A stretch of 64,000 nucleotides of DNA, from assembly GCF_054482525.1 (NCBI RefSeq), contig NZ_CM137006.1; one strand, 5' to 3'. The notes beneath the pieces were generated by a model. It worked only from the letters and a program-made list of their open reading frames with translations, did not search any database and had not been told where the DNA came from. A program made the translations under genes and the position numbers. Positions 6,679 through 28,818 of this stretch are shown here, piece by piece (position 1 is the stretch's first letter; each line of letters opens with the position of its first letter).

Positions 6679-6754
<76 letters not shown>

Positions 6755-6757
6755 TAT

Positions 6758-6832
<75 letters not shown>

Positions 6833-9177: not shown

Positions 9178-9182
9178 AGCAC

Positions 9183-9722: not shown

Positions 9723-9860
9723 GAGTTAACCCTCTGAAGTAAAAAGTAATATCTACACCCGTTAGCTCATGAAGTCTATTGATCTGGCTCATATCAGCGG
9801 CAAATCTATTTCATGGAGATACTCAATGCAGGTCACTTTTGATTTATATAAGGGCGAAAC

Positions 9861-10211: not shown

Positions 10212-10360
10212 TAACAGTTCCCATCTGTAGGGGAGGGGTGGGTCAAATCCCTGCAGCCCTGGCTGCTCAGTACCGCCGCCTGACCCTTCCTCACATCGCC
10301 GCAGGTTCGAAAACTTTTTTTTTGGAAATGTGAACAAACGATTGATAGGTAAGACCGATT

Positions 10361-10843
10361 ATGTCAGGACCTCCGAAAACCCCGCCACGCCTGCATTTGA
10401 TTCGAGGTAACCCCTCAAAGCGCCCCGTTAAAGACCACAAAAAAACCGCTAAAAAGGATGAAAAAGGTCTTCCTAAAATTCCGCAGCATTTAGGGGCTCA
10501 GGGGAAGTACTGGTTCAGGCGAATGGCGGAAGAGCTGAATGCGGAAGGGATCATTTCTCAGCTTGATGCGCGTGCGCTCGAGCTGCTGGTGGAAGCCTAC
10601 ACCGAATATCGGCATCACTGCGAAACACTCGATGTTGAGGGGTATACCTACCGCACGGAAACGCAGAGCGGTGATGTACTGATTAAGGCGCACCCCGCGG
10701 CGGCAATGAAAGCGGATGCCTGGAAGCGGATCCGGGCAATGCTTGCAGAGTTTGGTATGTCACCGGCAAGCCGGGCTAAAGTAAATATCGCCGGACCGGA
10801 TGATGTTGATCCGCTGGCGGAGCTTTTAAAAGCGAGAGACTGA
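10361..10843 (+). CDS. Terminase small subunit (P27-type)
   Basis: 160 aa basic N-terminus; stop overlaps start of large terminase. Confidence 0.7.
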   Translation: MSGPPKTPPRLHLIRGNPSKRPVKDHKKTAKKDEKGLPKIPQHLGAQGKYWFRRMAEELNAEGIISQLDARALELLVEAYTEYRHHCETLDVEGYTYRTETQSGDVLIKAHPAAAMKADAWKRIRAMLAEFGMSPASRAKVNIAGPDDVDPLAELLKARD

Positions 10844-12600
10844 TGGCAAAAGTGGCTGACGGGATCCGCTACGCCGAACGTGTTGTTGCAGGAGAAATTG
10901 TTGCTGGCGAATTTGTCCGCCTGGCCTGCCAGCGTTTTCTTGATGATCTGAAGTACGGCGAAGAGCGGGGGATTTATTTCAGTGAACCCCGTGCGCAGCA
11001 CATCCTGAATTTCTACAAATTTGTGCCTCATGTAAAAGGGGCGCTGGCAGGCCAGCCCATTGAGTTGATGGACTGGCATGTATTTATCCTCATTAATATT
11101 TTTGGTTTTGTCATTCCGCTGGTCAATGAAGAGACCGGGGAAGTTGTCATGCGCAGCGATGGCAGCGGACGTCCGGTGATGGTGCGCCGGTTCCGGACGG
11201 CGTACAACGAAGTCGCCCGTAAAAACGCAAAATCAACTCTGTCATCGGGTATCGGCCTGTATATGACGGGGGCAGATGGTGAAGGCGGAGCTGAGGTGTA
11301 TTCAGCCGCAACCACGCGTGACCAGGCCAGAATCGTGTTTGAAGACGCCAAAAATATGGTCAGAAAAGCCCGGTCGACACTCGGGCGGTTGTTTGATTTC
11401 AACAAGCTGGCGATTTACCAGGAGCAGAGCGCATCAAAATTTGAACCGCTTTCTTCGGATGCAAACAACCTAGATGGTCTGAACATCCACTGCGCCATTA
11501 TTGATGAGCTGCATGCACATAAAACCCGTGACGTGTGGGACGTTCTGGAAACGGCAACCGGTGCCCGTCTGCAGTCCCTTTTATTTGGTATCACCACGGC
11601 AGGGTTTAACAAGGAAGGGATTTGTTACGAGCAGCGTGATTACGCCATCAAGGTATTGCGTGGCTATAACAGCGACGTGGAGGGCGCGGTAAAAGACGAC
11701 TCCTACTTTGCGATTATTTACACCCTCGATGAGGGAGATGATCCGTTTGATGAAACGGTCTGGCAGAAAGCGAATCCCGGCCTGGGCATCTGTAAACGCT
11801 GGGATGATCTGCGTCGCCTGGCGAAAAAAGCGAAAGAACAGGTCTCTGCGCGGGTGAATTTTTTTACCAAACACATGAATGTGTGGGTAACAGCAGAGTC
11901 TGCCTGGATGGACATGATTAAGTGGGAGAAGTGCGAATACATTGCCCCACGACATGAGCTGAAAACGTATCCCATGTGGGTCGGCGTTGACCTTGCTCAT
12001 AAGATTGATATCTGTGCGGCGGCAAAACTCTGGCGAACGGATAACGGGCATGTTCATGCCGATTTTAAATTCTGGCTTCCGGAAGGACGGCTGGAACGAT
12101 GCTCGCGGCAGCAGGCAGAACTTTACCGGAAGTGGGCGGAGATGGATAAGCTGATTCTGACGGATGGTGATGTTATCGATCATGCTCAGATAAAAAGTGA
12201 CTTACTGGAATGGATTGGTGGTGAAAACCTCAGGGAACTGGGATTTGACCCGTGGAGCGCGATGCAGTTCAGCCTGGCACTGGCTGAAGAAGGGATACCG
12301 CTGGTGGAGGTTCCGCAGACGGTTCGCAATCTGTCAGAGGCCATGAAGGAAACGGAATCACTGGTCTATGCCGGGCGTTTCCATCACAGCAATCATCCGG
12401 TCATGAACTGGATGATGTCTAACGTTACGGTAAAACCGGACAAAAACGACAATATCTTCCCGAATAAATCCACGCTGGAAGCCAAAATCGACGGCCCTGT
12501 TGCGATGTTTACAGCAATGAGCCGGATGCTGGTCAATGGTGGTGAACCGGAGCTGGATCTGTCTGAACATCTGGTCAGCGTGGGCATCCGCTCGCTTTAA
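10843..12600 (+). CDS. Terminase large subunit
   Basis: 585 aa; ATPase Walker-like region and nuclease C-terminal half; position before portal. Confidence 0.85.
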
Positions 12601-12611
12601 CCGAGGTCATT

Positions 12612-12794
12612 ATGTTTCTGATAATTCTCGCGCCACTGGTGGGCGTGCTGGGTGCGCTTTTGCTGGCGTATGGTGCCTGGCTGATTTATCCCCCGGCGGG
12701 TTTTGTTGTTGCCGGGGTGCTGTGCCTGTTCTGGTCGTGGCTGGTGGCGCGATATCTCGACCGTACACAGCCGTCTGTCGGCGGAGGTAAATAG
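12612..12794 (+). CDS. Small membrane protein (2 predicted TM helices)
   Basis: 60-aa hydrophobic ORF between terminase and portal; stop overlaps portal start. Confidence 0.3.
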
Positions 12795-14035
12795 TGTTCT
12801 TTTCGGGATTATTTCAACGAAAAAGTGACGCACCGGTGACCACGCCAGCAGAGCTGGCGGATGCCATCGGGTTGTCTTACGACACCTATACCGGAAAGCA
12901 GATCAGCAGTCAGCGGGCCATGCGACTGACGGCGGTTTTTTCCTGCGTCAGAGTGCTGGCAGAGTCGGTCGGGATGTTGCCCTGCAATCTGTATCACCTG
13001 AACGGCAGCCTGAAACAGAGGGCCACCGGCGAACGTCTGCATAAGCTGATCTCCACGCATCCCAATGGCTATATGACGCCGCAGGAGTTCTGGGAGCTGG
13101 TGGTCACCTGTCTGTGCCTGAGGGGAAACTTTTACGCCTACAAAGTGAAAGCATTTGGCGAAGTGGCTGAACTGCTGCCCGTCGATCCCGGTTGTGTGGT
13201 ACCGAAGCTTAACAGTCGCTGGGAGCCGGTCTATCAGGTCACATTCCCGGACGGTTCCACGGATGTACTGAGCCAGGAAGATATCTGGCATGTGCGCACG
13301 CTGACGCTGGACGGTCTGGTGGGACTGAATCCCATCGCCTATGCCCGCGAGGCAATATCGCTGGCAGCAGCGACCGAAGAGCACGGGGCCAGACTGTTCA
13401 GCAATGGTGCGGTGACGTCCGGTGTGTTGCGTACAGAACAGACGCTGTCGGATCAGGCTTATGAGCGCCTGAAGAAAGATTTTGAGGAGCGTCACACCGG
13501 GCTTGGCAATGCTCACCGCCCGATGATCCTTGAGATGGGGCTGGACTGGAAGTCGATGGCGCTGAACGCCGAGGACAGCCAGTTCCTGGAAACCCGCAAG
13601 TTTCAGCTTGAAGAAATCTGTCGTCTGTTCCGGGTGCCGTTGCACATGGTGCAGAACACCGATCGCGCCACCTTCAACAATATCGAAGAGCTGGGGCTGG
13701 GATTTATCAACTATTCACTGGTGCCGTATCTGACCCGCATCGAACAGCGGATCAACACCGGACTGGTACGAAAAAGTAAGCAGGGCGTTTATTACGCCAA
13801 ATTTAACGCCGGGGCGTTACTGCGCGGGGATATGAAGTCCCGTTTTGAAGCCTACGCCACCGGGATCAACTGGGGAATTTACTCTCCCAATGACTGCCGC
13901 GACCTGGAAGATATGAATCCGCGTCCCGGTGGTGATGTCTATCTCACACCGATGAACATGACCACAAAACCCTCCGATGGCAGTAAAGCCGGTAAGCAGA
14001 AGGATAACGCCAATGCAGACGAAACAACGTCTTGA
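12794..14035 (+). CDS. Portal protein (HK97-type)
   Basis: 413 aa; gene order and HK97-portal-like sequence. Confidence 0.8.
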   Translation: MFFSGLFQRKSDAPVTTPAELADAIGLSYDTYTGKQISSQRAMRLTAVFSCVRVLAESVGMLPCNLYHLNGSLKQRATGERLHKLISTHPNGYMTPQEFWELVVTCLCLRGNFYAYKVKAFGEVAELLPVDPGCVVPKLNSRWEPVYQVTFPDGSTDVLSQEDIWHVRTLTLDGLVGLNPIAYAREAISLAAATEEHGARLFSNGAVTSGVLRTEQTLSDQAYERLKKDFEERHTGLGNAHRPMILEMGLDWKSMALNAEDSQFLETRKFQLEEICRLFRVPLHMVQNTDRATFNNIEELGLGFINYSLVPYLTRIEQRINTGLVRKSKQGVYYAKFNAGALLRGDMKSRFEAYATGINWGIYSPNDCRDLEDMNPRPGGDVYLTPMNMTTKPSDGSKAGKQKDNANADETTS

Positions 14036-14663
14036 TGTACCGCTGAGTCTGAAATCTGTCAGTGACTCCGGTGAGTTTGAAGGGTATGGCTCCGTCTTTG
14101 GTGTAAAGGACAGCCACGATGATGTGGTGATGTCCGGGGCATTTGCTGCTTCCCTGCGGGCGTGGAGTGACAGAAAAGCGTTACCTGCGCTGCTCTGGCA
14201 GCACCGCATGGATGAACCCATCGGTGTTTACACCGAAATGAAGGAAGACGATGTCGGGCTTTACGTCAGGGGACGGTTGCTTATTGATGATGATCCCCTC
14301 GCAAAACGCGCACATGCACACATGAAGGCCGGTTCGTTAACCGGCCTTTCTATTGGGTACGTCCTGAAAGACTGGGAATACGACCGGAGCAAAGAAGCCT
14401 TTCTGCTGAAAGAAATCGACCTCTGGGAAGTCAGCCTGGTGACGTTCCCGTCTAACGACGAGGCGCGGATCAGCGACGTCAAGAACGCACTGGCCCGCGG
14501 GGAAATCCCCGAACAGAAAAAAATCGAAAGAGTCCTGCGTGATGTCGGACTCTCCCGTACCCAGGCCAAAGCATTCATGGCCGGGGGCTATGGCGCACTG
14601 TCCCTGCGCGACGCTGAGGATGTGGGCTCTGCACTGAATGCACTGAAAAATCTAAACTTCTAA
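13977..14663 (+). CDS. Prohead protease (HK97-type)
   Basis: 228 aa between portal and capsid; start may be internal. Confidence 0.7.
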   Translation: MAVKPVSRRITPMQTKQRLDVPLSLKSVSDSGEFEGYGSVFGVKDSHDDVVMSGAFAASLRAWSDRKALPALLWQHRMDEPIGVYTEMKEDDVGLYVRGRLLIDDDPLAKRAHAHMKAGSLTGLSIGYVLKDWEYDRSKEAFLLKEIDLWEVSLVTFPSNDEARISDVKNALARGEIPEQKKIERVLRDVGLSRTQAKAFMAGGYGALSLRDAEDVGSALNALKNLNF

Positions 14664-14677
14664 TCAGGAGAAATACG

Positions 14678-15883
14678 ATGGCGGTTGATATTAAAGATGT
14701 CGAACAGGTCGCGCAGGAGCTGCAGCAGAAGTTTGACGACTTCAAAGCAAAGAACGACAAGCGCGTGGATGCGATTGAGCAGGAAAAAGGCAAACTTGCC
14801 GGGCAGGTGGAAACCCTGAACGGGAAACTCAGCGAGCTGGAAAACCTCAAAAGCGATCTTGAAAAAGAGCTGCTTGAGCTGAAACGTCCGGCAGGTGGTG
14901 CGCAAAATAAACTGGCCACCGAGCATAAAGAAGCGTTTGTGGGCTTCCTGCGTAAAGGCCGTGAAGATGGTCTGCGCGATCTGGAGCGCAAGGCATTACA
15001 GGTGGGCACCGATGAAGACGGCGGCTATGCCGTGCCGGAAGCACTGGATCGCAACATTCTCACCCTGCTGAAAGATGAAGTGGTGATGCGCCAGGAAGCC
15101 ACGGTGATCAGCGTTGGTGGTTCCGACTACAAAAAACTGGTGAATCTGGGCGGCACGGCTTCCGGATGGGTTGGCGAGACTGACGCGCGCTCCCAGACTG
15201 CCACCTCAAAACTGGGCCTGATTGAACCTTTCATGGGGGAAATCTACGGTAACCCGCAGGCCACCCAGAAAATGCTGGATGATGCCTTTTTCAACGTGGA
15301 AGCATGGATCAACAGCGAGCTGGCAACCGAATTTGCCGAACAGGAAGAAATTGCCTTTACCACCGGCGATGGTACCAAGAAGCCGAAAGGGTTCCTGGCG
15401 TATGAGTCCACGGATGAAACAGACAAGGTCCGGGCGTTCGGCAAACTTCAGCATATTGTATCCGGCGAAGCGACGGCGGTGACCGCAGATGCCATTATCA
15501 AACTGATTTACACGCTGCGTAAGGCACACCGCACTGGCGCGAAGTTCATGATGAACAACAACAGTCTGTTTGCCATCCGTCTGCTGAAAGACAGTGAGGG
15601 TAACTATCTGTGGCGTCCGGGGCTGGAGCTGGGGCAGCCGTCCTCTCTGGCGGGTTACGGTATCGCTGAAAACGAACAGATGCCGGATATTGCCGCTGAT
15701 GCGAAAGCCATTGCATTTGGTAACTTCAAACGGGGTTACACCATCGTTGACCGTATCGGTACCCGCATTCTGCGTGACCCGTACACCAATAAACCGTTTG
15801 TCGGTTTTTATACCACCAAGCGCACCGGCGGCATGCTGGTCGATTCGCAGGCCATCAAACTGCTGAAGATTGCAGCGGCGTAA
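14678..15883 (+). CDS. Major capsid protein (HK97 fold) with N-terminal coiled-coil delta domain
   Basis: 401 aa; N-terminal coiled coil, then HK97-like capsid body. Confidence 0.8.
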   Translation: MAVDIKDVEQVAQELQQKFDDFKAKNDKRVDAIEQEKGKLAGQVETLNGKLSELENLKSDLEKELLELKRPAGGAQNKLATEHKEAFVGFLRKGREDGLRDLERKALQVGTDEDGGYAVPEALDRNILTLLKDEVVMRQEATVISVGGSDYKKLVNLGGTASGWVGETDARSQTATSKLGLIEPFMGEIYGNPQATQKMLDDAFFNVEAWINSELATEFAEQEEIAFTTGDGTKKPKGFLAYESTDETDKVRAFGKLQHIVSGEATAVTADAIIKLIYTLRKAHRTGAKFMMNNNSLFAIRLLKDSEGNYLWRPGLELGQPSSLAGYGIAENEQMPDIAADAKAIAFGNFKRGYTIVDRIGTRILRDPYTNKPFVGFYTTKRTGGMLVDSQAIKLLKIAAA

Positions 15884-15934
15884 TCATTCAGGGGGCGCAG
15901 AAGTGCGCCCCCTGTTCTGACAGGTGAAAGAATC

Positions 15935-16123
15935 ATGATCCTGAAACAAGATCTGAAATGGTCACCGGACGGTATGCGTGTTGAGATTATTCGGGCCGGT
16001 GAGTATGAAGATAAAGAATTACCCGAACGGGTACGCGAAATTGCCACTGCAGCTGGGATTGTCTCTGATAAGAGAACACCTGTTGCGCGGGGGGCTGATA
16101 AGTCTAAAAAACAGCATTCATAG
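15935..16123 (+). CDS. Hypothetical small head-module protein
   Basis: 62-aa ORF with RBS, between capsid and connector genes. Confidence 0.3.
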   Translation: MILKQDLKWSPDGMRVEIIRAGEYEDKELPERVREIATAAGIVSDKRTPVARGADKSKKQHS

Positions 16124-16134
16124 AGGTTGCCCAA

Positions 16135-16440
16135 ATGATGCCCACTCTGGAAGAGCTTCGTGTTCAGTGCCGGATTGATGATGACAATGAACAGGAGAAT
16201 TCTCTTCTTATGATGTATCTGGCTGCTGCCAGGGAAGAGGCTGAAAAGTTTTTAAACCGGACGCTTTACGATGAAACTGTTTCTGAGCAGGATACGACCG
16301 GGCTTGTAATAACACCTCTGATAAAACTGCGTCTTATGCAACTGGTTGGCTACTGGTACGAGAACAGGGAAATGCAGGATGCAGTGCCTGATTTTTTCTA
16401 TACCGGACTGCGGATGTATCGATTTCATCCCGGAACATAG
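16135..16440 (+). CDS. Head-tail connector protein (gp6-like)
   Basis: 101 aa; position and size. Confidence 0.55.
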   Translation: MMPTLEELRVQCRIDDDNEQENSLLMMYLAAAREEAEKFLNRTLYDETVSEQDTTGLVITPLIKLRLMQLVGYWYENREMQDAVPDFFYTGLRMYRFHPGT

Positions 16441-16448
16441 GAGGATTC

Positions 16449-16787
16449 ATGCAGGCAGGAAGATTACGTGATCGTGTGGTTATTCTGAATGCCACCACCG
16501 TTCGGTCTCCGTCAGGGCACCCTGTGGAAACAATGACGGAGGGGGCAACCATATGGGCAGAAGTTAAGGGGATCAGTGGCAGGGAGAGAATATCCGGAGG
16601 CGCAGAAACTGCTCAGGCTACAGTGAGGGTCTGGATGAGATTCCGGCGAGATGTAACAGCAACTTCATGTCTGAAAGTGCTGACTGGTGCATTCAAAGGC
16701 GCGATTCTGAGTATAGACGGTCCGCCGATACCGGATGCTCGTGCCACACGGCTTGAGATACTCTGTTCTCAGAAGGGGAATGTGTGA
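16449..16787 (+). CDS. Head-tail adaptor
   Basis: 112 aa; gene order. Confidence 0.5.
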   Translation: MQAGRLRDRVVILNATTVRSPSGHPVETMTEGATIWAEVKGISGRERISGGAETAQATVRVWMRFRRDVTATSCLKVLTGAFKGAILSIDGPPIPDARATRLEILCSQKGNV

Positions 16788-17233
16788 TGGATTTCAGTCT
16801 TGATTTTTCAGGTCTGGCGGATATTGCACGGGATCTGGAGACGCTCAGCAGGGCAGAAAATAATAAGGTACTGCGCGATGCCACCCGTGCCGGTGCTGAA
16901 GTTATGCGGGATGCAGTTGTTGAACGTGCGCCGGAGCGAACCGGGAAACTGAAGAAAAATGTGGTTGTTCTCACTCAGCGTTCAAAGCGTCGCGGGGAAA
17001 TTATCTCGGGTGTCCACATTCGTGGACGGAACCTGCGAACCGGAAACAGTGATAACAGCATGAAAGCCAGTGATCCCCGAAATGCGTTTTACTGGCGCTT
17101 TGTGGAGCTGGGAACGATAAACATGCCCGCGCATCCGTTCATTCGCCCGGCTTTCGATACGACAGAGGAACTGGCAGCACAGATTGCCATACAGCGAATG
17201 AATCAGGCTATTGATGAGGTCTTAAGTAAATGA
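16784..17233 (+). CDS. HK97 gp10-like head-tail joining protein
   Basis: 149 aa; overlapping stop/start coupling. Confidence 0.5.
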   Translation: MMDFSLDFSGLADIARDLETLSRAENNKVLRDATRAGAEVMRDAVVERAPERTGKLKKNVVVLTQRSKRRGEIISGVHIRGRNLRTGNSDNSMKASDPRNAFYWRFVELGTINMPAHPFIRPAFDTTEELAAQIAIQRMNQAIDEVLSK

Positions 17234-17574
17234 GAGAGACCACACTGTATTCCCTGCTGTCTCAACTGGCCGGAGGACAGGTTTATCCTTATGTGGTCCC
17301 GCTGACGGAGGGAAAGCCTGCGGTATCTCCGCCATGGCTGGTATTTTCTGTGGTGTCTGACACTGCGTCTGATGTGCTTGATGGTCAGGCTGAATCCAGA
17401 ATTACCGTGCAGATCGATGTCTGGGCAACAGTACCTGATGACGCAGATGATATCCGTGAGCAGGCGCTTGATGCGGTAAGGCAACTTGCACCCTCCGTTA
17501 TTTCTAAAACTCAGGGTTATGATCCTGATTCCCGTCTGAGCAGAGCCACGCTTGAATTTCAGGTAATAGCCTGA
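17230..17574 (+). CDS. Tail completion-like protein
   Basis: 114 aa; gene order. Confidence 0.45.
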   Translation: MRETTLYSLLSQLAGGQVYPYVVPLTEGKPAVSPPWLVFSVVSDTASDVLDGQAESRITVQIDVWATVPDDADDIREQALDAVRQLAPSVISKTQGYDPDSRLSRATLEFQVIA

Positions 17575-17633
17575 GGTCGTTAATGATTTTACCCACCCGC
17601 CGCTGGCGGGTTTTTTATTTTCAGGAGACGAGT

Positions 17634-18338
17634 ATGTCCTCTAATTTTGAGCGTTCGCAACTGACGAAAATTATGATTTCGTCTGCACCGGTAACAGCAG
17701 AAACCCTGGATTCTGCCAGCTATCTTGGCCTGAGCTGTACAATCAAAGAGGTGCAGTTTACCGCAGGACAAAAGCAGGATATTGATGTCACCACGCTGTG
17801 TTCTGTTGAGCAGGAAAATATTAACGGCCTTGGTGCCGCGTCAGAGATTTCCATGTCAGGCAACTTTTACCTCAATGCTGCCCAGAACGCGTTGCGCAGT
17901 GCCTATGACAATGACACCACGTATGGCTTTAAAGTTATTTTTCCGTCAGGCAACGGATTTACCTTTATGGCAGAGGTGCGTCAGCATACCTGGTCTGCAG
18001 GAACTAATGGTGTTGTGGCTGCAACGTTTTCCCTGCGCCTGAAAGGTAAACCTGTGCTGACGACAGAGCCGCTGAAAGTGAAGGTCGATTTAAACAGCAC
18101 GCTGCAGGTTTCTGCCGGAGCGAAACTCGAAATGGTGGTTGAGGCTGCCGGTGGTGTGCCGCCTTATTCTTATGTCTGGAAGAAAGGTAGTTCTCCTGTT
18201 TCCGGACAGACGGCGGCAACATTCAGTAAGGCATCAGCAGCATCAGGTGATGCCGGTGCGTATACCTGCGAGATTTCTGATTCAGCAAGCCCTGTTAACA
18301 AGGTGACCTCCACTTCCTGCACTGTTACCGTCAGTTAA
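17634..18338 (+). CDS. Major tail protein with C-terminal Ig-like domain
   Basis: ATG at 17634 with RBS aggaga; preceded by hairpin plus T-run at 17598-17620. Confidence 0.7.
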   Translation: MSSNFERSQLTKIMISSAPVTAETLDSASYLGLSCTIKEVQFTAGQKQDIDVTTLCSVEQENINGLGAASEISMSGNFYLNAAQNALRSAYDNDTTYGFKVIFPSGNGFTFMAEVRQHTWSAGTNGVVAATFSLRLKGKPVLTTEPLKVKVDLNSTLQVSAGAKLEMVVEAAGGVPPYSYVWKKGSSPVSGQTAATFSKASAASGDAGAYTCEISDSASPVNKVTSTSCTVTVS

Positions 18339-18724
18339 TGAGGATAGATGTGATGACTAAAAATATCCGCAATCTGGCACTGGCAACGATGTCGGGGTTT
18401 CGCCATAAAACTGTTGATGTGCCTGAATGGGAAGGGGCAACGGTTGTATTACGGGAACCTTCTGCAGAAGCCTGGTTGCGCTGGCAGGAGATCGTTAAAG
18501 CAAAAGATGATGAGACACCGTTATCCGTTGCGGAGCGCGCCCGCCGAAATCTGGAGGCAGATGTTGAACTGTTCATTGATGTTCTGTGTGATACCGGACT
18601 GCAACCTGTATTTTCAGAGGATGATCGTGAACAGGTGATTGCCGTGTATGGCCCGGTGCATGCGCGGCTTCTTCGGCAGTCTCTGGAACTGATCAGTGAT
18701 GCCGGCGAGGTTAAAAAAAAGTAG
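18338..18724 (+). CDS. G: Tail assembly chaperone (lambda G-like)
   Basis: 128 aa; ends in slippery GTT AAA AAA AAG TAG. Confidence 0.7.
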   Translation: MRIDVMTKNIRNLALATMSGFRHKTVDVPEWEGATVVLREPSAEAWLRWQEIVKAKDDETPLSVAERARRNLEADVELFIDVLCDTGLQPVFSEDDREQVIAVYGPVHARLLRQSLELISDAGEVKKK

Positions 18725-19026
18725 AGCTTCCGGGGATGCGTTTTCTGATGATGCTGGCGCTCAGGATGGGGCGCACATTGTCAGAGTTACGCCGGGAAAT
18801 GTCCGCATCAGAAATCATGATGTGGGCAGAATTTGACAGGTTCAGCCCGCTGGGTGACGAGCGGGCTGATATCCGGGCTGCCCAGATAGTTTCTGCGGTT
18901 TACGGTGCGCAGGGTGTCAAAGTCCCACTGAATGATGCGCTTCTTCAGTGGGAACAAGAGCAGACAGAAGGCGTCTCAGATCCATTTGCCGGACTGGAAA
19001 ACGCGCTTTTAATAGTGTCTCAGTGA
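18715..19026 (+). CDS. Tail assembly chaperone extension (T-like), expressed as G-T fusion by -1 frameshift
   Basis: A AAA AAG at 18715-18721; the -1 frame is open from 18721 through ORF 18736-19026. Confidence 0.6.
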   Translation, partial: KKVELPGMRFLMMLALRMGRTLSELRREMSASEIMMWAEFDRFSPLGDERADIRAAQIVSAVYGAQGVKVPLNDALLQWEQEQTEGVSDPFAGLENALLIVSQ

Positions 19027-19065
19027 GTCAACATAACCGCTTCGGCGGTTTTTTTCGTCCGGAGA

Positions 19066-22000
19066 ATGAGTGTGGCGACATTACGTGAACTGATTATTAA
19101 AATCTCGGCAAATTCCCGGTCATTCCAGTCAGAGATCTCCCGGGCTTCGCGTATGGGGCAGGATTACTACCGTACCATGCAGAACGGAGGCCGGCAGTCC
19201 GCTGCTGCATCCCGTGAAATGCGGCGTGCACTGGCAGAAGTGACGGATCAGATAAATACAGCTAAATCTTCGGCACTGAATATGGCGGGGGCATTTGCCG
19301 GAGCTTTTGCTACCGGTCATCTTATTTCTCTCGCCGATGAGTGGAATTCAGTAAATGCCCGTCTGAAGCAGGCTTCACAGTCCAGTGATGATTTTCAGGT
19401 ATCACAACGTGAATTAATGGCAATCAGCCAGAGAACGGGAACGGCGTTTTCTGATAACGCCAGCCTTTTTGCCCGCTCTGCAGCTTCCATGCGGGAGTAT
19501 GGCTACAGTTCTGAGGAGGTACTGAAAGTCACCGAGGCGATCTCCACGGGCCTGAAATTATCCGGTGCCAGTACAGCAGAAGCCAGTTCGGTGATCACGC
19601 AGTTCAGTCAGGCACTGGCGCAGGGAGTGCTGCGCGGTGAAGAATTTAACGCTGTGAATGAGAACGGCGATCGTGTTATTCGTGCGCTGGCTGCGGGAAT
19701 GGGTGTTGCCCGTAAGGATCTGAAGGCCATGGCGGATAACGGAAAACTGACCGCCGATAAGGTTGTTCCTGCACTGATTAGTCAGCTTGGGGCGTTGCGT
19801 GATGAATATGCAGCAATGCCTGATACTGTTTCATCCTCTGCAACCAAAGTTGAAAACGCCTTTATGGCCTGGGTTGGTGGTGCGAACGAGGCAAGCGGAG
19901 TGACAAAGACACTCACCGGGGTGTTGAATGGTGTTGCAGACAATATTGATACCGTGGCTGCTGCAGCTGGCGCACTGGTTGCCGTCGGGGTAGCCCGATA
20001 TTTTGGCAATATGGCGTCGTCTGCTGGATCTGCAACTGCCGGATTAATTACTGCATCCAGAAACGAAGTGGCTCTTGCTGAAGCGCAACTTCGGGGGACA
20101 CAGATAGCAACCGCCAGGGCGCGTGCGGCGGTTTATCGTGCGCAACAGGCGGTTGTTGCTGCTCGCGGTACCGAAAGGCAGGCCGCAGCAGAAGCGAAGC
20201 TGACAGCTGCCCAGGCGTCACTTACCCGTAATATTGCGGCCAGAACAGCGGCACAGACAACGCTGAATACTGTCACGTCAGTGGGGAGTCGTCTGTTAAG
20301 TGGTGCGCTGGGGTTGGTTGGTGGTGTGCCGGGACTCGTCATGCTGGGGGCGACGGCCTGGTACACGATGTATCAGAATCAGGAGCAGGCCAGAGAATCT
20401 GCACGCCAGTATGCCGCAACAATCGACGAAATTCGCCAGAAAACGTCGGCAATGTCGCTTCCTGAAGCGTCAGATAATGAGGAAAAGACGCGGCAGGCAC
20501 TTGATGAGCAAAACAGGTTAATTGACGAGCAGAAAAGTAAGATTAAATCCTTACAGGAAAAAATTGCTGGCTATCAGTATGTGCTGGCAAACCCGGGCTG
20601 GACAACCGATAACGGTTTTATGATTAACCACATGACGTCGGTAAAAACTGTCACAGAAGGGCTTGCAGAAGCAACAAATCAACTGGCAGTTGAACAGTCC
20701 CGTCTCACACAAATGCAGGGCAAAGCGCAATCCATTCAGGATGTGCTTGCCGGGCTGGAGGAGCGACGGGTGGCGTTGATCCGTCAACAGGCCGCGGAAC
20801 AAAACAAAGCGTATCAGTCCCTGTTGATCATGAATGGGCAGCATACCGAGTTTAATCGCCTTCTCGGGCTCGGTAATGAATTACTTCAGCAGCGACAGGG
20901 GCTGGTGAATGTACCGTTACGGCTACCACAGGCAACCCTGGATGATAAACAGCAGACCGCACTGAATAACAGCGAGCGCGAACTGGCTCTGTCCCGCCTG
21001 AAGGGGGAAGCCCGTGAGCGTGCCCGCCTGGGTTATGCTGCGGATGATCTCGGCTTTGTGGGAGAGGCGTATCAGACAGCCAGACAGAATTATATCAATA
21101 CCTCACTGGATGCCTGGCGAAATAACCAGGTAAATAAACCCAAAGCGCATAAAAAGACCGAAGCGGAAAAAACAGAAGATATTTATAAACGGCTGATTAA
21201 ACAGCAAAAAGAACAAATAGCACTGGCAGGGCAGAATACTGAACTGGCTAAGATGAAATATCAGGTCAGTCAGGGCGAATTATCAACCCTGTCAGAAGCG
21301 CAGAAAAAAACGCTTTTGCAGAATGCAGCACTTATCGACCAGAAAAAGATTCGTGAGCAGCTTGCTGCGTATGAGAGCAGTCTGGCGGACAGTAATGCCA
21401 GTGCCCGGGCATCTGACGAAGCGCAGTTGTTGGGATATGGTGAAGGCTCACGGATGCGTGAACGACTCCAGGAAATGTGGAGTATCCGGCAGGCGTTTGA
21501 GCAGAAAAATAACGAGCTACTGAGACAGTATCAGGCCGGAGAAATTGAAGAAGCCCTGTGGAAACAGGAAAAATCGCTGAATGAAAAATATCTGGAAGAG
21601 CGTCTCAGCGATCAGCAGGATTATTATGCAAAGGCTGATGCTTTACGCAGTGACTGGAATGCCGGCCTCCAGGAGGGACTGACGAACTGGGCAGACAGTG
21701 CCACCGATTATGCTTCGCAGGCGGCAGATGCTGTCGTTTCCACTATGGACGGGCTGGTATCAAATATTTCCGATGCACTGGCCGGAAATGTTGTGGACTG
21801 GCGAAACTGGGGGAGTTCAATTCTCCAGGAAGTTTCAAAAATTCTGATGAACGCTGCCATCGTTAACGGGCTGAAGTCACTTTCCAAAAGCATGTCCGGT
21901 GCCGGAGGATGGCTTGGTACGGTCGGCGACTGGCTTTCCGGTGCAGTGGCAAACGCAAAAGGTGGTGTTTATACATCTGCAAATCTGAGTGCTTACAGTA

Positions 22001-22311
22001 ACACCATTGTGGATACCCCGACGTATTTTGCTTTTGCGAAAGGTGCCGGGCTGATGGGCGAGGCCGGGCCTGAAGCTATCATGCCACTGACCCGGGCAGC
22101 GGACGGCTCTCTTGGAGTCAGAGCCATTGGCAATGTGAATGGTGGCGGGGGATTTGTTTATTCTCCCGTGTATCACATCAGTATTCAGAATAAAGGGAGC
22201 AATGGCGAGATAGATACGCAGTCAGCCAGGGGGCTGGTGGATCTGATCGACAGCAGGGTTGTGTCAATTATGCAGTCATCACGTCGGGACGGAGGATTAT
22301 ACAGTGCCTGA
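19066..22311 (+). CDS. Tail tape measure protein
   Basis: 1081 aa, alpha-helical, follows the G/T chaperones. Confidence 0.85.
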   Translation: MSVATLRELIIKISANSRSFQSEISRASRMGQDYYRTMQNGGRQSAAASREMRRALAEVTDQINTAKSSALNMAGAFAGAFATGHLISLADEWNSVNARLKQASQSSDDFQVSQRELMAISQRTGTAFSDNASLFARSAASMREYGYSSEEVLKVTEAISTGLKLSGASTAEASSVITQFSQALAQGVLRGEEFNAVNENGDRVIRALAAGMGVARKDLKAMADNGKLTADKVVPALISQLGALRDEYAAMPDTVSSSATKVENAFMAWVGGANEASGVTKTLTGVLNGVADNIDTVAAAAGALVAVGVARYFGNMASSAGSATAGLITASRNEVALAEAQLRGTQIATARARAAVYRAQQAVVAARGTERQAAAEAKLTAAQASLTRNIAARTAAQTTLNTVTSVGSRLLSGALGLVGGVPGLVMLGATAWYTMYQNQEQARESARQYAATIDEIRQKTSAMSLPEASDNEEKTRQALDEQNRLIDEQKSKIKSLQEKIAGYQYVLANPGWTTDNGFMINHMTSVKTVTEGLAEATNQLAVEQSRLTQMQGKAQSIQDVLAGLEERRVALIRQQAAEQNKAYQSLLIMNGQHTEFNRLLGLGNELLQQRQGLVNVPLRLPQATLDDKQQTALNNSERELALSRLKGEARERARLGYAADDLGFVGEAYQTARQNYINTSLDAWRNNQVNKPKAHKKTEAEKTEDIYKRLIKQQKEQIALAGQNTELAKMKYQVSQGELSTLSEAQKKTLLQNAALIDQKKIREQLAAYESSLADSNASARASDEAQLLGYGEGSRMRERLQEMWSIRQAFEQKNNELLRQYQAGEIEEALWKQEKSLNEKYLEERLSDQQDYYAKADALRSDWNAGLQEGLTNWADSATDYASQAADAVVSTMDGLVSNISDALAGNVVDWRNWGSSILQEVSKILMNAAIVNGLKSLSKSMSGAGGWLGTVGDWLSGAVANAKGGVYTSANLSAYSNTIVDTPTYFAFAKGAGLMGEAGPEAIMPLTRAADGSLGVRAIGNVNGGGGFVYSPVYHISIQNKGSNGEIDTQSARGLVDLIDSRVVSIMQSSRRDGGLYSA

Positions 22312-22645
22312 GCCTGAAGTTTTTAACTGGATCCCCCGCGAGGGGATGGAGACGACACGAAAGCCATCTGTTATTACGGTAAAGTTCGGTGACGGATATG
22401 AACAGCGGCGGGCTGGTGGTCTGAATGCGGATCTGAAAACGTTTAAACCGGTGTTTCGTGTCACAGATGAATATTCCCGTGCTGCGCTGGACAGTTTTTT
22501 ATCCCGTCATGCCGGGATACGTGCTTTTTTGTGGCGTCCGCCAAAACACAACAGAACCGTCCGGGTTGTCTGCAGGGAGTGGAGTATTTCGGATAATGCC
22601 ATGTATACCGATTTTAACTGTACCTTTGAAGAGGTCACTCACTGA
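22304..22645 (+). CDS. M: Minor tail protein M
   Basis: KFGDGYEQRRAGGLNADLKTF... aligns with lambda M as recalled; GTG start at 22304 assumed. Confidence 0.75.
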   Translation: MPEPEVFNWIPREGMETTRKPSVITVKFGDGYEQRRAGGLNADLKTFKPVFRVTDEYSRAALDSFLSRHAGIRAFLWRPPKHNRTVRVVCREWSISDNAMYTDFNCTFEEVTH

Positions 22646-23343
22646 TGCAGGATATACAGCAGGAAACACTGAATGAGTGTACAAAAGCGGAGCAATCCGC
22701 GCTGGTCGTGCTCTGGGAAGTCGATCTGACAGAAGTCGGCGGAGAGCGTTATTTTTTCTGTAATGAGCAGAACGAAAAAGGTGAGTCAGTCACCTGGCAG
22801 GGGCGACAGTATCAGGCGTACCCTATTCAGGGAAGCGGCTTTGAGATGAACGGCAAAGGAGCCAGTGCAAGACCAACGCTGAAAGTCTCTAACCTGCACG
22901 GCATGGTCACCGGGATGGCGGAAGACCTGCAAAGTCTGGTCGGCGGAACGGTGGTCAGGCGTAAGGTTTACGCCCGTTTTCTGGATGCGGTGAACTTCGT
23001 CAACGGAAACAGTGACGCCGATCCGGAGCAGGAGGTGATCAGCCGCTGGCGCATCGAGCAGTGCAGCGAACTGAGCGCGGTCAGTGCCTCCTTTGTGTTG
23101 TCCACACCGACGGAAACGGATGGTGCCGTTTTTCCGGGGCGCACCATGCTGGCCAACACCTGCACCTGGACCTATCGCGGTGATGAGTGCGGTTATAATG
23201 GTCCGGCTGTCGCGGATGAATATGACCAGCCGACGTCCGATATCACGAAGGATAAATGTAGCAAATGCCTGAGTGGCTGTAAGTTTCGCAATAACGTCGG
23301 CAACTTTGGCGGCTTCCTTTCCATTAACAAACTTTCGCAGTAA
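22645..23343 (+). CDS. L: Minor tail protein L
   Basis: 232 aa, near-identical to lambda L as recalled. Confidence 0.9.
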   Translation: MQDIQQETLNECTKAEQSALVVLWEVDLTEVGGERYFFCNEQNEKGESVTWQGRQYQAYPIQGSGFEMNGKGASARPTLKVSNLHGMVTGMAEDLQSLVGGTVVRRKVYARFLDAVNFVNGNSDADPEQEVISRWRIEQCSELSAVSASFVLSTPTETDGAVFPGRTMLANTCTWTYRGDECGYNGPAVADEYDQPTSDITKDKCSKCLSGCKFRNNVGNFGGFLSINKLSQ

Positions 23344-23348
23344 ATCCC

Positions 23349-24092
23349 ATGACAGAGACAGAATCAGCGATTCTGGCGCACGCCCGGCGATGTGCGCCAG
23401 CGGAGTCGTGCGGCTTCGTGGTGAGAACGCCGGAGGGGGAAAGATATTTTCCCTGCGTGAATATCTCCGGTGAGCCGGAGGAGTATTTCCGGATGTCGCC
23501 GGAGGACTGGCTGCAGGCAGAGATGCAGGGTGAGATTGTGGCGCTGGTCCACAGCCATCCCGGTGGTCTGTCCTGGCTGAGTGAAGCCGACCGGCGGCTG
23601 CAGGTGCAGAGTGATTTACCGTGGTGGCTGGTCTGCCGCGGGGAGATTCATAAATTCCGCTGTGTGCCGTATCTCACCGGGCGGCGCTTTGAGCACGGGG
23701 TGACGGACTGTTACACGCTGTTCCGGGACGCTTACCATCTGGCGGGGATTGAGATGCCGGATTTTCACCGCGAGGATGACTGGTGGCGTAACGGCCAGAA
23801 TCTCTATCTGGATAATCTGGAGGCCACAGGGCTGTATCAGGTGCCGTTGTCATCGGCCCAGCCGGGCGATGTGCTGCTGTGCTGTTTTGGTTCATCGGTG
23901 CCGAATCATGCCGCCATTTACTGCGGCGACGGCGAGCTGTTGCACCATATTCCTGAACAACTGAGCAAACGAGAGAGGTATACCGACAAATGGCAGCGAC
24001 GCACACACTCCCTCTGGCGTCACCAGGCATGGCACGCATCTGCCTTTACGGGGATTTGCAACGATTTGGCCGCCGCATCGACCTTCGTGTGA
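23349..24092 (+). CDS. K: Tail assembly protein K (MPN/NlpC-P60 domains)
   Basis: 247 aa, near-identical to lambda K as recalled. Confidence 0.9.
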   Translation: MTETESAILAHARRCAPAESCGFVVRTPEGERYFPCVNISGEPEEYFRMSPEDWLQAEMQGEIVALVHSHPGGLSWLSEADRRLQVQSDLPWWLVCRGEIHKFRCVPYLTGRRFEHGVTDCYTLFRDAYHLAGIEMPDFHREDDWWRNGQNLYLDNLEATGLYQVPLSSAQPGDVLLCCFGSSVPNHAAIYCGDGELLHHIPEQLSKRERYTDKWQRRTHSLWRHQAWHASAFTGICNDLAAASTFV

Positions 24093-24637
24093 AAACGGGG
24101 GCTGAAGCCATCCGGGCGCTGTCCACACAGGTCCCGGCGTTTCGTCAGAAACTGAATGACGGCTGGTATCAGGTGCGCATTGCCGGGCGTGATGCAGGTG
24201 AAACCGAATTATCTGCCCGTCTTAATGAGCCGCTGGCAAATGGTGCAGTGATCCACATCGTGCCGCGTCTGGCGGGAGCCAAAAGTGGCGGTGTTTTTCA
24301 GGCGGTGCTGGGTGCGGCGCTGATTGCGGTGGCGTGGTGGAACCCCGCAGGCTGGCTGGGTGCCGCGGCTTTATCGGGCATGTATGCGGCTGGGGCCAGT
24401 ATGATCCTGGGTGGTGTGGCGCAGATGCTGGCACCGAAAGCCCGGACGCCCACGGCAGCCAGTACAGATAACGGCAAACAGAACACGTATTTCTCGTCAC
24501 TGGATAACATGGTTGCCCAGGGCAATGTTCTGCCCGTTCTGTACGGTGAAATGCGTGTGGGGTCGCGAGTGGTATCTCAGGAGATCAGCACGGCAGATGA
24601 AGGTGATGGTGGTCAGGTTGTGGTGATTGGTCGCTGA
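23990..24637 (+). CDS. I: Tail assembly protein I
   Basis: 215 aa; MAATHTLPLASPGMARICLYGDLQRFGRRIDLRVKTGAEAIRAL as in lambda I as recalled. Confidence 0.8.
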   Translation: MAATHTLPLASPGMARICLYGDLQRFGRRIDLRVKTGAEAIRALSTQVPAFRQKLNDGWYQVRIAGRDAGETELSARLNEPLANGAVIHIVPRLAGAKSGGVFQAVLGAALIAVAWWNPAGWLGAAALSGMYAAGASMILGGVAQMLAPKARTPTAASTDNGKQNTYFSSLDNMVAQGNVLPVLYGEMRVGSRVVSQEISTADEGDGGQVVVIGR

Positions 24638-24697
24638 TGCAAAATGTTTTATGTGAAACCGCCTGCGGGCGGTTTTGTCGTTTATGGAGCGTGAAGA

Positions 24698-27600
24698 ATG
24701 GGTAAAGGCAGCAGTAAGGGGCATACCCCGCGCGAAGCGAAGGACAACCTGAAGTCCACGCAGTTGCTGAGTGTGATCGATGCCATCAGCGAAGGGCCGA
24801 TTGACGGTCCGGTGGATGGATTAAAAAGCGTGCTGCTGAACAGTACGCCAGTGCTGGACACTGAGGGGAATACCAACATCTCCGGCGTCACGGTGGTGTT
24901 CCGGGCAGGTGAGCAGGAGCAGACTCCGCCGGAGGGGTTTGAATCCTCCGGCTCCGAGACGGTGCTCGGTACAGAAGTGAAATATGACACGCCGATCACC
25001 CGGACCATCACGTCGGCAAACATTGACCGTCTGCGTTTTACTTTCGGCGTGCAGACACTGGTGGAAACCACCTCAAAGGGGGACAGGAATCCGTCGGAAG
25101 TCCGCCTGCTGGTTCAGATACAGCGTAACGGTGGCTGGGTGACGGAAAAAGACATCACCATTAAGGGCAAAACCACCTCGCAGTATCTGGCCTCGGTGGT
25201 GGTGGGTAACCTGCCGCCGCGCCCGTTTAATATCCGGATGCGCAGGATGACGCCGGACAGCACCACAGACCAGCTGCAGAACAAAACGCTCTGGTCGTCA
25301 TACACCGAAATCATCGATGTGAAACAGTGCTACCCGAACACGGCACTGGTCGGCGTGCAGGTGGACTCGGAACAGTTCGGCAGTCAGCAGGTGAGCCGTA
25401 ATTATCATCTTCGCGGGCGCATTCTGCAGGTGCCGTCGAACTATAACCCGCAGACGCGGCAATACAGCGGTATCTGGGACGGAACGTTTAAGCCAGCATA
25501 CAGCAACAACATGGCCTGGTGTCTGTGGGATATGCTGACCCATCCGCGCTACGGCATGGGGAAGCGTCTCGGTGCGGCGGATGTGGACAAATGGGCGCTG
25601 TATGTCATCGGCCAGAATTGCGACCAGTCGGTGCCGGATGGCTTTGGTGGCACGGAGCCGCGCATCACCTGTAATGCCTGGCTGACCACACAGCGTAAGG
25701 CGTGGGATGTTCTCAGTGATTTCTGCTCGGCGATGCGCTGTATGCCGGTATGGAACGGGCAGACGCTGACGTTCGTGCAGGACCGACCATCAGATAAGGT
25801 GTGGACCTATAACCGCAGTAATGTGGTGATGCCGGATGATGGCGCGCCGTTCCGCTACAGCTTCAGCGCCCTGAAGGACCGCCATAATGCCGTTGAGGTG
25901 AACTGGATTGACCCGAACAACGGCTGGGAGACGGCGACAGAGCTTGTTGAAGATACGCAGGCCATTGCCCGTTACGGTCGTAACGTCACGAAGATGGATG
26001 CCTTTGGCTGTACCAGCCGGGGGCAGGCACACCGCGCCGGGCTGTGGCTGATTAAAACGGAACTGCTGGAAACGCAGACCGTGGACTTCAGCGTGGGCGC
26101 AGAAGGGCTTCGCCATGTACCGGGCGATGTCATTGAAATCTGTGATGATGACTATGCCGGTATCAGCACCGGTGGTCGTGTGCTGGCGGTGAACAGCCAG
26201 ACCCGGACGCTGACGCTCGACCGTGAAATCACGCTGCCATCCTCCGGTACCACGCTGATAAGCCTGGTTGACGGAAGTGGCAATCCGGTCAGCGTGGAGG
26301 TTCAGTCCGTCACCGACGGCGTGAAGGTAAAAGTGAGCCGTGTTCCTGACGGTGTTGCTGAATACAGCGTATGGGGGCTGAAGCTGCCGACGCTGCGCCA
26401 GCGCCTGTTCCGCTGTGTGAGTATCCGGGAGAACGATGACGGTACGTATGCCATCACCGCCGTGCAGCATGTACCGGAAAAAGAAGCCATCGTGGATAAC
26501 GGGGCGCACTTTGACGGCGACCAGAGCGGCACGGTGAATGGTGTCACGCCGCCAGCGGTGCAGCACCTGACCGCCGAAGTCACCGCAGACAGCGGGGAAT
26601 ATCAGGTGCTGGCGCGATGGGACACGCCGAAGGTGGTGAAGGGCGTGAGCTTCCTGCTTCGCCTTACCGTGGCAGCGGACGACGGCAGTGAGCGGCTGGT
26701 CAGCATGGCCCGGACGACGGAAACCACATACCGCTTCAGGCAACTGGCGCTGGGGCGTTACACGCTGACGGTCCGGGCGGTAAATGCGTGGGGGCAGCAG
26801 GGCGATCCGGCATCGGTATCGTTCCGGATTGCGGCACCGGCAGCGCCTGTCACTATTGAACTGATACCAGGGTATTTTCAGATAACAGCGGTCCCGAAAC
26901 TGGCTGTATATGACCCGACGGTGCAGTTTGAGTTCTGGTTCTCGGAAACGCGGATTACCGATATCAGGCAGGTTGAAACCACAGCCCGCTACCTTGGCAC
27001 GGGGCTGTACTGGATAGCCGCCAGTATCAATATCAAACCGGGCCATGATTATTACTTTTATATCCGCAGTGTGAACACCGTTGGCAAATCGGCATTCGTG
27101 GAGTCCGTCGGTCGGGCGAGCGATGATGCGGAAGGTTACCTGGATTTTTTCAAAGGCAAGATAACCGAATCCCATCTCGGCAAGGAGCTGCTGGAAAAAG
27201 TCGATCTGACGGAGGATAACGCCAGCAGACTGGATGAGTTTTCGAAAGAGTGGAAGGATGCCAACGATAAATGGAATGCCATGTGGGCTGTCAAAATTGA
27301 GCAGACCAAAGACGGCAAACATTATGTCGCGGGTATTGGCCTCAGTATGGAGGACACGGAGGAAGGCAAACTGAGCCAGTTTCTGGTTGCCGCTAACCGT
27401 ATCGCGTTTATTGACCCGGCAAACGGGAATGAAACGCCGATGTTTGTGGCGCAGGGCAATCAGATATTCATGAACGACGTGTTCCTGAAACGCCTGACGG
27501 CCCCCACCATTACCAGTGGTGGAAATCCACCGGCATTTTCCCTGACACCGGATGGGCGGCTGACGGCGAAAAATGCCGATATCAGCGGTAACGTGAATGC

Positions 27601-28093
27601 GAACTCCGGGACGCTCAACAACGTCACGATTAACGAGAACTGTCGGGTTCTGGGAAAACTGTCCGCGAACCAGATTGAAGGCGATCTCGTTAAAACAGTG
27701 GGCAAAGCTTTCCCCCGGGACTCCCGTGCACCGGAACGGTGGCCATCAGGGACCATTACCGTCAGGGTTTATGACGATCAGCCGTTTGACCGGCAGATTG
27801 TTATTCCGGCGGTGGCATTCAGCGGCGCTAAACATGAGAGAGAGCATACTGATATTTACTCCTCATGCCGTCTGATAGTGCGGAAAAACGGTGCTGAAAT
27901 TTATAACCGTACCGCGCTGGATAATACGCTGATTTACAGTGGCGTTATTGATATGCCTGCCGGTCACGGTCACATGACGCTGGAGTTTTCGGTGTCAGCA
28001 TGGCTGGTAAATGACTGGTATCCCACTGCGAGCATCAGCGATTTGCTGGTTGTGGTGATGAAGAAAGCCACTGCAGGCATCACTATTAGCTGA
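24698..28093 (+). CDS. J: Host specificity / central tail fibre protein J
   Basis: 1131 aa; lambda J-like size and position. Confidence 0.9.
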
Positions 28094-28111
28094 ATTTTAT
28101 AACCCAGATAC

Positions 28112-28138
28112 GGGCGCCAGAAATGGCGCCTTTTTTAT
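28112..28138 (+). terminator. Rho-independent terminator after J
   Basis: ggcgccagaaatggcgcc hairpin followed by a T-run. Confidence 0.55.
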
Positions 28139-28160
28139 TGCAGAAAAGCGAGAGGTAATT

Positions 28161-28760: not shown

Positions 28761-28786
28761 TTAGCCAGGTAACACAGTGTTATGAC

Positions 28787-28815
28787 AGCCCGCCGGTTCA
28801 GGCGGGCTTTTTTGT
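28787..28815 (+). terminator. Rho-independent terminator after lom
   Basis: agcccgccggttcaggcgggct hairpin followed by a T-run. Confidence 0.55.
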
Positions 28816-28818
28816 GGA

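Follow-up and report, generated by a model that had tools for sequence, protein, structure and literature searches.

The stretch of DNA analysed here (hereafter the window; 64,000 nt of contig NZ_CM137006.1, assembly GCF_054482525.1) is Escherichia coli chromosome carrying a lambdoid prophage, within which we studied the region from an HNH endonuclease gene to the tail gene J (9861–28093). This region is very probably the complete late virion block of an intact prophage, and a patchwork of at least six segments (A, B, B', C, D and E below) produced by repeated lambdoid recombination. Our references were lambda (J02459), HK97 (AF069529), the Salmonella phage ST64B (AY055382; reportedly the subject of Mmolawa et al. 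2003) and the coliphage PhiR49_2 (PV340570), with identity computed in 200-bp windows for lambda and HK97 and tabulated for six references in all; identities are given at the nucleotide (nt) or amino-acid (aa) level. The genes and features of the block are as follows.

9861–10211, + strand: HNH endonuclease (Pfam HNH, E 2.3e-16; 37% aa to HK97 gp74 over 70 aa; also in phage vB_EcoM-606R7, hereafter 606R7)
10212–10360: intergenic stretch between HNH and terS, presumed cos region from the position in HK97
10361–10843, + strand: small terminase subunit TerS, P27/Terminase_4 type, segment A (PF05119, E 2.3e-25; 96% aa to PhiR49_2 TerS)
10843–12600, + strand: large terminase subunit TerL (Pfam TerL_ATPase and TerL_nuclease)
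12543–12600, + strand: C-terminal tail of TerL (last ~14–18 residues), co-varying with portal type
12612–12794, + strand: hydrophobic YmfR/Sb3-like protein of 60 aa, segment B (90% aa to ST64B Sb3)
12794–14035, + strand: portal, segment B (Phage_portal PF04860, E 5e-108)
14013–14663, + strand: prohead serine protease S78, segment B (Peptidase_S78, E 1e-31)
14678–15883, + strand: major capsid protein with HK97 fold, segment B (Phage_capsid PF05065, E 2e-79, residues 115–398)
15935–16123, + strand: Sb7-like protein of 62 aa (59% aa to ST64B Sb7), within which ST64B DNA similarity ends (~16002–16012)
16135–16440, + strand: gp6-like head–tail adaptor, segment B' (Pfam Phage_connect_1)
16449–16787, + strand: gp7-like head-closure protein, start of segment C (Phage_HCP; 63% aa to HK97 gp7, 91% to PhiR49_2)
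16787–17233, + strand: HK97 gp10-like neck/tail protein (HK97-gp10_like; 80% aa to HK97 gp10)
17230–17574, + strand: gp11-like tail completion protein (Tail_completion_gp17; 51% aa to HK97 gp11)
17634–18338, + strand: major tail tube protein with C-terminal Ig-like domain (71% aa to HK97 gp12 over 234 aa)
18353–19026, + strand: tail chaperones G (18353–18724) and G-T (Phage_TAC_1, E 2e-58, and Phage_tail_T; G 64% aa to HK97 gp13)
19072–22311, + strand: tape measure protein, 1079 aa (Phage_HK97_TLTM, E 6e-93, TMP_3 and Tape_meas_lam_C)
22304–22645, + strand: minor tail protein M, end of segment C (Phage_min_tail)
22645–23343, + strand: L, start of segment D (93.5% aa to lambda L)
23349–24092, + strand: K, 247 aa (Prok-JAB and NLPC_P60; 96.0% aa to lambda K over its annotated 199 aa)
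23990–24637, + strand: I (78.0% aa to lambda I), with the K/I overlap kept as in lambda
24698–27642, + strand: J residues 1 to ~981, segment D (Pfam J domains; J overall 89.5% aa to lambda J)
27643–28093, + strand: J C-terminal receptor-binding domain, segment E (Ig_GpJ_C, residues 1001–1131)

The first-pass annotation's assignment of the HNH, P27-type terS, terL, portal, protease and capsid genes is borne out by these Pfam matches. Together the products would form a virion with a long non-contractile tail of siphovirus type. HNH, TerS and TerL would cut cos, presumably in the 10212–10360 interval (placed there because HK97 gp74 sits at the right genome end, adjoining cos and gp1), and the DNA would be packaged through the portal. 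The capsid protein would assemble with its own N-terminal domain, in place of a separate scaffold gene product, as scaffold, and the S78 protease would then trim it; head closure would fall to the gp6-like and gp7-like proteins, completion of neck and tail to the gp10-like and gp11-like ones. G and G-T would act as chaperones of the tape measure, G-T presumably arising by −1 frameshifting at a slippery heptamer, A AAA AAG, that reads intact at 18715–18721, just ahead of the stop codon of G. The tip would consist of M, L, K, I and J, with receptor binding by the C-terminal domain of J.

That the block is instead a decaying remnant of a cryptic prophage, no longer a working virion module, we consider unlikely. 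Related portal-side sequence does lie beside ymfR in K-12-type chromosomes (ymfR being the RefSeq label there of the homologue of the 60-aa protein), a locus that we take to be the defective e14 element, and the prophage of this strain is known from its sequence alone. Each structural open reading frame (ORF), however, is full length against its counterpart in PhiR49_2 (a complete genome), ST64B or HK97; the same genes recur in the partial 606R7 record, the G/G-T slippery site is intact, a right attachment site (attR) is present, and phage Evi (LR597642), from the temperate coliphage collection of Mathieu et al., has this structural module too.

Ordered by nearest relative, the late block resolves into the following segments.

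10230–12542, segment A: terminase, as in PhiR49_2
12583–16002, segment B: YmfR-like protein, portal, protease and capsid, as in ST64B and the K-12 e14 element (our assumed identity for the ymfR locus)
~16010–16438, segment B': gp6-like adaptor allele
16438–22645, segment C: neck, tube, G/G-T chaperones, tape measure and M; the HK97-like part
22645–27643, segment D: L, K, I and most of J; lambda-like, 92% nt
27643–28093, segment E: J receptor-binding domain, as in O157 prophages

Windowed identity against lambda and HK97, the comparison proposed in the first-pass annotation, displays step changes along the region. Lambda aligns at 91.9% nt over 22625–27643 (lambda 13409–18450; L, K, I and J residues 1 to ~980), and elsewhere in the window only at the Rz region, at the lom/stf border (the lom 3' and stf 5' ends, 84%) and at a short element near attR. 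There is no lambda DNA similarity anywhere in 16100–22600, and lambda Nu1, A, W, B, C, Nu3, D, E, FI, FII, Z, U, V, G and T have no BLAST-detectable counterpart in the region, the lambda capsid protein E belonging to a different Pfam family from that of the window capsid. HK97 keeps the same gene order throughout, yet its DNA match is confined to 16556–22135 (66–76% nt), with none in 10361–16555 or 22136–28093, which is not the pattern of a close (Byrnievirus-level) relative of HK97; its neck, tube, chaperone and tape measure proteins are 51–80% identical at the aa level, those of M, L, K, I and J 33–39%. From terS through the capsid gene, no 200-bp window matches either phage.

The relationship of the head genes to HK97 is one of family, as the two share Pfam families for HNH, TerL, portal, protease, capsid and gp6, but TerL, portal, protease and capsid of HK97 are only 26–36% identical (aa) to those of the window, with no DNA match. 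The TerS of the window has no BLASTP match to HK97 gp1 or lambda Nu1, and HK97 gp1 has no Pfam match, hence none to Terminase_4. By contrast, the run from YmfR-like protein through portal and protease to capsid recurs in unchanged order in ST64B at 90, 99, 99 and 96% aa, over a DNA match of 94.4% confined to 12583–16002 (3420 bp), with no DNA similarity outside it; the neck and tail genes of ST64B are annotated as Mu sheath-, tube- and baseplate-like, of contractile-tail type and so unlike those of the window. The portal is 99.3% identical to ST64B Sb4 (32% to HK97 gp3, 29% to the PhiR49_2 portal), the protease 98.6% to Sb5 (36% to HK97 gp4), and the capsid protein 96.3% to Sb6, found by translated search (26% to HK97 gp5). 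HK97 gp3 and gp4 match the same Pfam families as the window portal and protease, and gp5 the same Phage_capsid model, its domain beginning at residue 113 versus 115 in the window capsid. The extension preceding this domain (114 aa, compared with 112 aa in HK97) is thus placed as the HK97 delta domain is, and is probably delta-like; the protease and capsid genes have no further ORF between them. Among solved structures, the best match of the capsid protein is to the capsid of the Rhodobacter capsulatus gene transfer agent (6TB9, E 4e-75, as against E 0.009 for HK97 gp5), and the alignment takes in most of the N-terminal extension. "HK97-type" is right for this head as a label of fold and architecture only.

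The 60-aa protein ahead of the portal has no Pfam match; it looks like two membrane helices, and sits in the terL–portal slot where lambda has its head–tail joining gene W. Downstream of the capsid gene, ~430 bp separate the end of the ST64B match from the point at which PhiR49_2 similarity resumes (16438), and contain the 3' part of the 62-aa ORF and the gp6-like adaptor gene. This adaptor is 33% identical (aa) to ST64B Sb8 and 48% to its PhiR49_2 homologue, and has no BLASTP match to HK97 gp6 though both fall in the same Pfam family. Among phage records, DNA of the adaptor stretch occurs only in 606R7 and in the Stx2f phage phi467. At least three adaptor alleles stand beside the same portal and capsid genes in IMG/VR loci; the adaptor is therefore exchanged independently.

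The neck and tail shaft follow HK97 more closely than does the head. The tube protein matches Ig_2 above the Pfam cutoff and tube families weakly, with no BLASTP match to lambda V; the tape measure is 56% identical to HK97 gp16 over its full length and 25% to lambda H in the C-terminal part only. M (40% aa to lambda M, 39% to HK97 gp17, 97% to PhiR49_2 M) is neither lambda-like nor HK97-like. At the M stop/L start, TGATG (22642–22646), the lambda alignment jumps from near-random to ~90%. Within the lambda-like tip, the middle of I (24200–24400) falls to 61% nt, and in J each 50-aa window as far as residue 950 is 88–100% identical to the lambda protein, the DNA alignment stopping at 27643; residues 1001–1131 are 32–48% identical to lambda J. 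The end of J is 97.8% identical (nt) to VT1-Sakai, PPompW and Stx2a phages, an O157-prophage allele, and J itself reads as chimeric. The receptor-binding domain of lambda J is LamB-specific; given the O157-prophage allele, the host range of this prophage is not to be presumed that of lambda.

A single junction at 16100–18300, joining an HK97-type head and packaging module to a near-lambda tail, was the arrangement proposed in the first-pass annotation, and the windowed identity tables refute it; we hold it to be very improbable. The head genes do belong to HK97 Pfam families, L, K, I and J are 78–96% identical to lambda (less in the middle of I and in J residues ~1000–1131), and a genuine joint exists at 16008–16438, inside or adjoining the proposed range. 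That joint, however, divides an ST64B-type head from an HK97-like neck and shaft: 16100–22600 is devoid of lambda similarity, the neck, tube, chaperone and tape measure proteins side with HK97, and the head cassette is 94% identical in DNA to ST64B, its relationship to HK97 standing at 29% for TerL, 32% for portal, 36% for protease and 26% for capsid. Near-lambda therefore describes the tip alone, neck, tube and chaperones lacking lambda similarity and H and M reaching 25% and 40%, and the lambda breakpoint expected in 16100–18300 lies at 22625–22645, the M/L gene boundary, ~5–6 kb downstream. Further joints at 12542–12583, 22645 and 27643 bring the number to at least five; the region is indeed mosaic relative to lambda and HK97, but not by one boundary. 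The corrected map is thus of a lambda-like tail tip only, an HK97-like shaft and a head like that of ST64B and e14.

PhiR49_2 aligns at 96% nt over the terminase (10230–12542) and at 95% over 16438–27151 (gp7-like gene to J residue ~818), with a different portal–protease–capsid–adaptor cassette between (portal 29%, capsid 26% aa) and a J of 1232 aa with another distal part. From HNH to I, the genes of 606R7 (ON470580) and their order are those of the window; one alignment covers 9861–23481 (13.6 kb) at 98.1% nt, beyond which identity over K/I is 90% up to window position 24637, where the 606R7 record ends. Phi467 (LN997803) is 97.4% identical over 10361–23427 and carries the same gp6-like cassette as the window and 606R7; both records are partial and end either ahead of the tip genes or within them. 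In the first-pass annotation, even similarity to one known phage throughout the region was named as what would refute the mosaic; 606R7 comes close to providing it, while the mosaic relation to lambda, HK97 and ST64B stays. Phi467 is a phage carrying vtx2f (Grande et al., PMC5189129); the structural module of phi467 and Evi is frequent in E. coli prophages, its neck classified next to that of HK97 (PMC6969025), and a 2022 study of 95 lambdoid phages describes head and tail genes as separate, co-transferred modules (PMC9836094). Our literature search found no paper on 606R7 or PhiR49_2.

The 17.7 kb of 10361–28093 are 100% identical in four complete E. coli chromosome records from three strains (W46, 405 and XH992). 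Because of this and of the single 606R7 alignment, we regard the mosaic as established and widespread: the arrangement is old, of a common lineage and already known, not a new recombinant or a recent event in this strain. Among 5426 complete E. coli genomes, 4997 match some part of the region, 265 hold at least 80% of it in one place, and its parts occur at a median of 3 and a maximum of 15 places per genome. Queries crossing four of the joints (counted as spanned when at least 80% of the query was covered) gave the following.

terL/portal joint: any match in 1947 genomes, spanning in 289; partial matches listed stop at 12539–12542 or start at 12581–12582
capsid/neck joint: any match in 1609, spanning in 244; partial matches listed stop at 16008–16012 or start at 16438
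M/L joint: any match in 4268, spanning in 1239; L-side-only matches listed start at 22641
J body/J end joint: any match in 4551, spanning in 800; many among the matches listed start at 27432–27437

The joint coordinates are thus exact and recurrent across the E. coli population. Most genomes that match the M/L query have the L side only, and portal-side-only matches to the terL/portal query include the K-12-type chromosomes, beside ymfR. Mosaic late operons whose joints fall between genes are said to have been textbook knowledge for lambdoid phages from the HK97/HK022 genome comparison onward, and the arrangement, carried by hundreds of sequenced E. coli genomes and by phage records already deposited, amounts to little as a discovery; the use of the map is practical.

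The joint between terminase and head lies inside terL, where similarity to PhiR49_2 stops at 12542 and similarity to ST64B begins at 12583. TerL residues 1–567 are 98.8% identical (aa) to PhiR49_2; TerL is 36% identical to ST64B Sb2 and 29% to HK97 gp2. PhiR49_2 TerL terminates in ...FLSTLDPDEDLLIL (...DPDEDLLIL), unlike the window TerL; ST64B TerL terminates in ...LSDHIESYGIRSL, sharing ...GIRSL with the window TerL though the body is only 36–38% identical. The TerL of Pseudomonas phage D14E (body 38%, portal 58% identical) terminates in ...LSDHIVKHGIRKL, with the same motif. We surveyed 80 IMG/VR loci with a TerL body at least 99% identical, of which 68 were informative; counting loci that are not independent events, tail type agrees with portal type in 67 of the 68, the GIRSL tail standing beside an ST64B-type portal in 43 of 44 and the DLLIL tail beside a PhiR49_2-type portal in all 24. 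One TerL body (99% aa) is in this way paired with two portals 29–31% identical to each other, and one portal (99% aa) with TerL bodies 36–38% identical.

These pairings suggest that the last 14–18 residues of TerL (...LS[ED]H[LI]xSxGIRSL) may be a portable portal-docking peptide, moving with the portal–protease–capsid cassette independently of the ATPase/nuclease body; on this proposal, which draws on co-inheritance with the portal and on analogy to lambda gpA, our judgement is evenly balanced. In the account of lambda given in PMC4856287, a short stretch at the extreme C-terminus of gpA docks on the portal, and gpA lacking its last five codons no longer binds proheads (Sippy & Feiss 1992 and Yeo & Feiss 1995 are cited there, with Frackman 1984 also cited for the prohead-binding C-terminus). 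Lambda gpA and B are of different families from the window TerL and portal, the likeness being that of a short large-terminase C-terminus tied to the portal. The published structure of the HK97 motor has the TerL nuclease domain beneath the portal clip, and the paper does not mention a C-terminal tail. A docking peptide, if true, would account both for a joint inside terL rather than at its stop codon and for one terminase body serving two portals ~30% identical. The same TerL body with two tails and two portals offers a clean natural test case for terminase–portal specificity in HK97-type motors.

The shared TerL bodies and portals bear equally on whether recombination is needed at all. A single vertical lineage whose genes evolved at unequal rates would fit the fact that structural genes do differ in rate, and M and the middle of I look merely diverged; but identity leaps from undetectable to more than 90% within a few bases at gene borders, the same TerL body occurs with portals 29–31% identical and the same portal with TerL bodies 36–38% identical, and thousands of genomes have one side of a joint without the other, which together leave descent without recombination more improbable still than a single head–tail junction. 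Mis-joining during assembly of co-resident lambdoid prophages that share tail-tip repeats has a negligible probability: parts of the region do recur at several places per genome (median 3, up to 15) and a number of phage contigs break off close to, or right at, the M/L border or the end of I, yet the four chromosome records from three strains agree at 100% over 17.7 kb, 265 genomes carry the region contiguously, and an independent phage record covers the A/B, B/C and C/D joints in one alignment.

We therefore return to repeated lambdoid recombination. The segments would have come together among co-resident or co-infecting phages and prophages sharing E. coli and Salmonella hosts, and the positions of the joints suggest that selection kept them at gene and domain borders, interacting parts staying together. 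Several points weigh against so specific an account. Short conserved sequences at gene ends could direct recombination to the joints, in place of selection; pairwise identities do not reveal the direction or order of the exchanges; where the segment borders fall depends on the phages available as sequenced references; 12543–12582 and the M gene lack a close named relative; and particle production and the cos ends would, for this prophage, be readings of its DNA only.

The right end of the prophage is marked by one further feature.

33230–33291: attR, 62 nt repeating the 3' part of tRNA-Ser (97% identity with the tRNA-Ser next to the 606R7 integrase)

This repeat points to integration at the tRNA-Ser gene serU, with the prophage ending at ~33291; zinT begins at 33961, to its right. 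Just inside that end, a 66–70-bp element (32925–32994) is 97% identical to HK97 DNA immediately left of the sib site (20974–21039) and 89% identical to a spot in the lambda b region (24190–24259), the lambda and HK97 copies being 90% identical over 95 bp. In the RefSeq annotation of strain 405, the neighbourhood comprises a prophage with a DicB/YdfC-type early region, Q, four tRNA genes and lysis genes, continuing with HNH, terminase, head, tail, Lom and side fibres, and then zinT. The four tRNA genes lie at 6523–6832 in the window, between the Q antiterminator and holin genes (CAT, Lys-TTT, Thr-TGT and Gly-TCC), the CAT tRNA being called Met by ARAGORN and Ile by RefSeq. The vtx2f genes of phi467 are placed near its Q and S genes (PMC5189129); in the 100%-identical strain 405 prophage no stx or other toxin gene is annotated, only the tRNA genes lying between Q and holin.

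Between the lysis genes and HNH lie a YfbU-family gene (9183–9722, − strand) and an 88-aa ORF without a Pfam family (8911–9177), in a slot (8911–9722) that is likely an accessory (moron) site; 606R7 has no gene annotated from Rz to its homing endonuclease, where the window has the YfbU-family gene. Downstream of J, lom (28161–28760) is flanked by strong terminator-like hairpins (28112–28131 and 28787–28808), in keeping with a moron. Over 9000–28900, where neither promoter-like sites (10, versus 15.0±3.1 in shuffled sequence) nor terminator-like sites (25, versus 19.7±4.0) are enriched, only four strong intergenic hairpins merit mention. Hairpins at 17595–17611, before the tube gene, and 19035–19050, before the tape measure gene, stand where HK97 annotates putative terminators.

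Lambda K differs from the window K in a manner that touches its annotation. The first 47 K codons of J02459 (from ATG 14133) are out of frame, one base fewer than in the window being present near 14266, and because of this missing base lambda K is annotated from 14276 as a shorter protein of 199 aa; the window K has complete JAB and NlpC/P60 domains. Either the reference lambda strain carries a genuine frameshift here, or the discrepancy goes back to an old problem of sequence or annotation.

Long antisense ORFs opposite terL (200 aa) and the portal gene (278 aa) have no Pfam match and were treated as composition artefacts. A third, of 510 aa, runs opposite J (25790–27322, − strand) in a 651-aa stop-free stretch; it likewise has no Pfam match, lambda J has a stretch of 705 aa of the same kind, and the ORF is most likely a by-product of J codon composition. 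In the host DNA to the right of the prophage, an IS1 copy lies inside hchA (39300–41300), according to the strain 405 annotation of the identical region.

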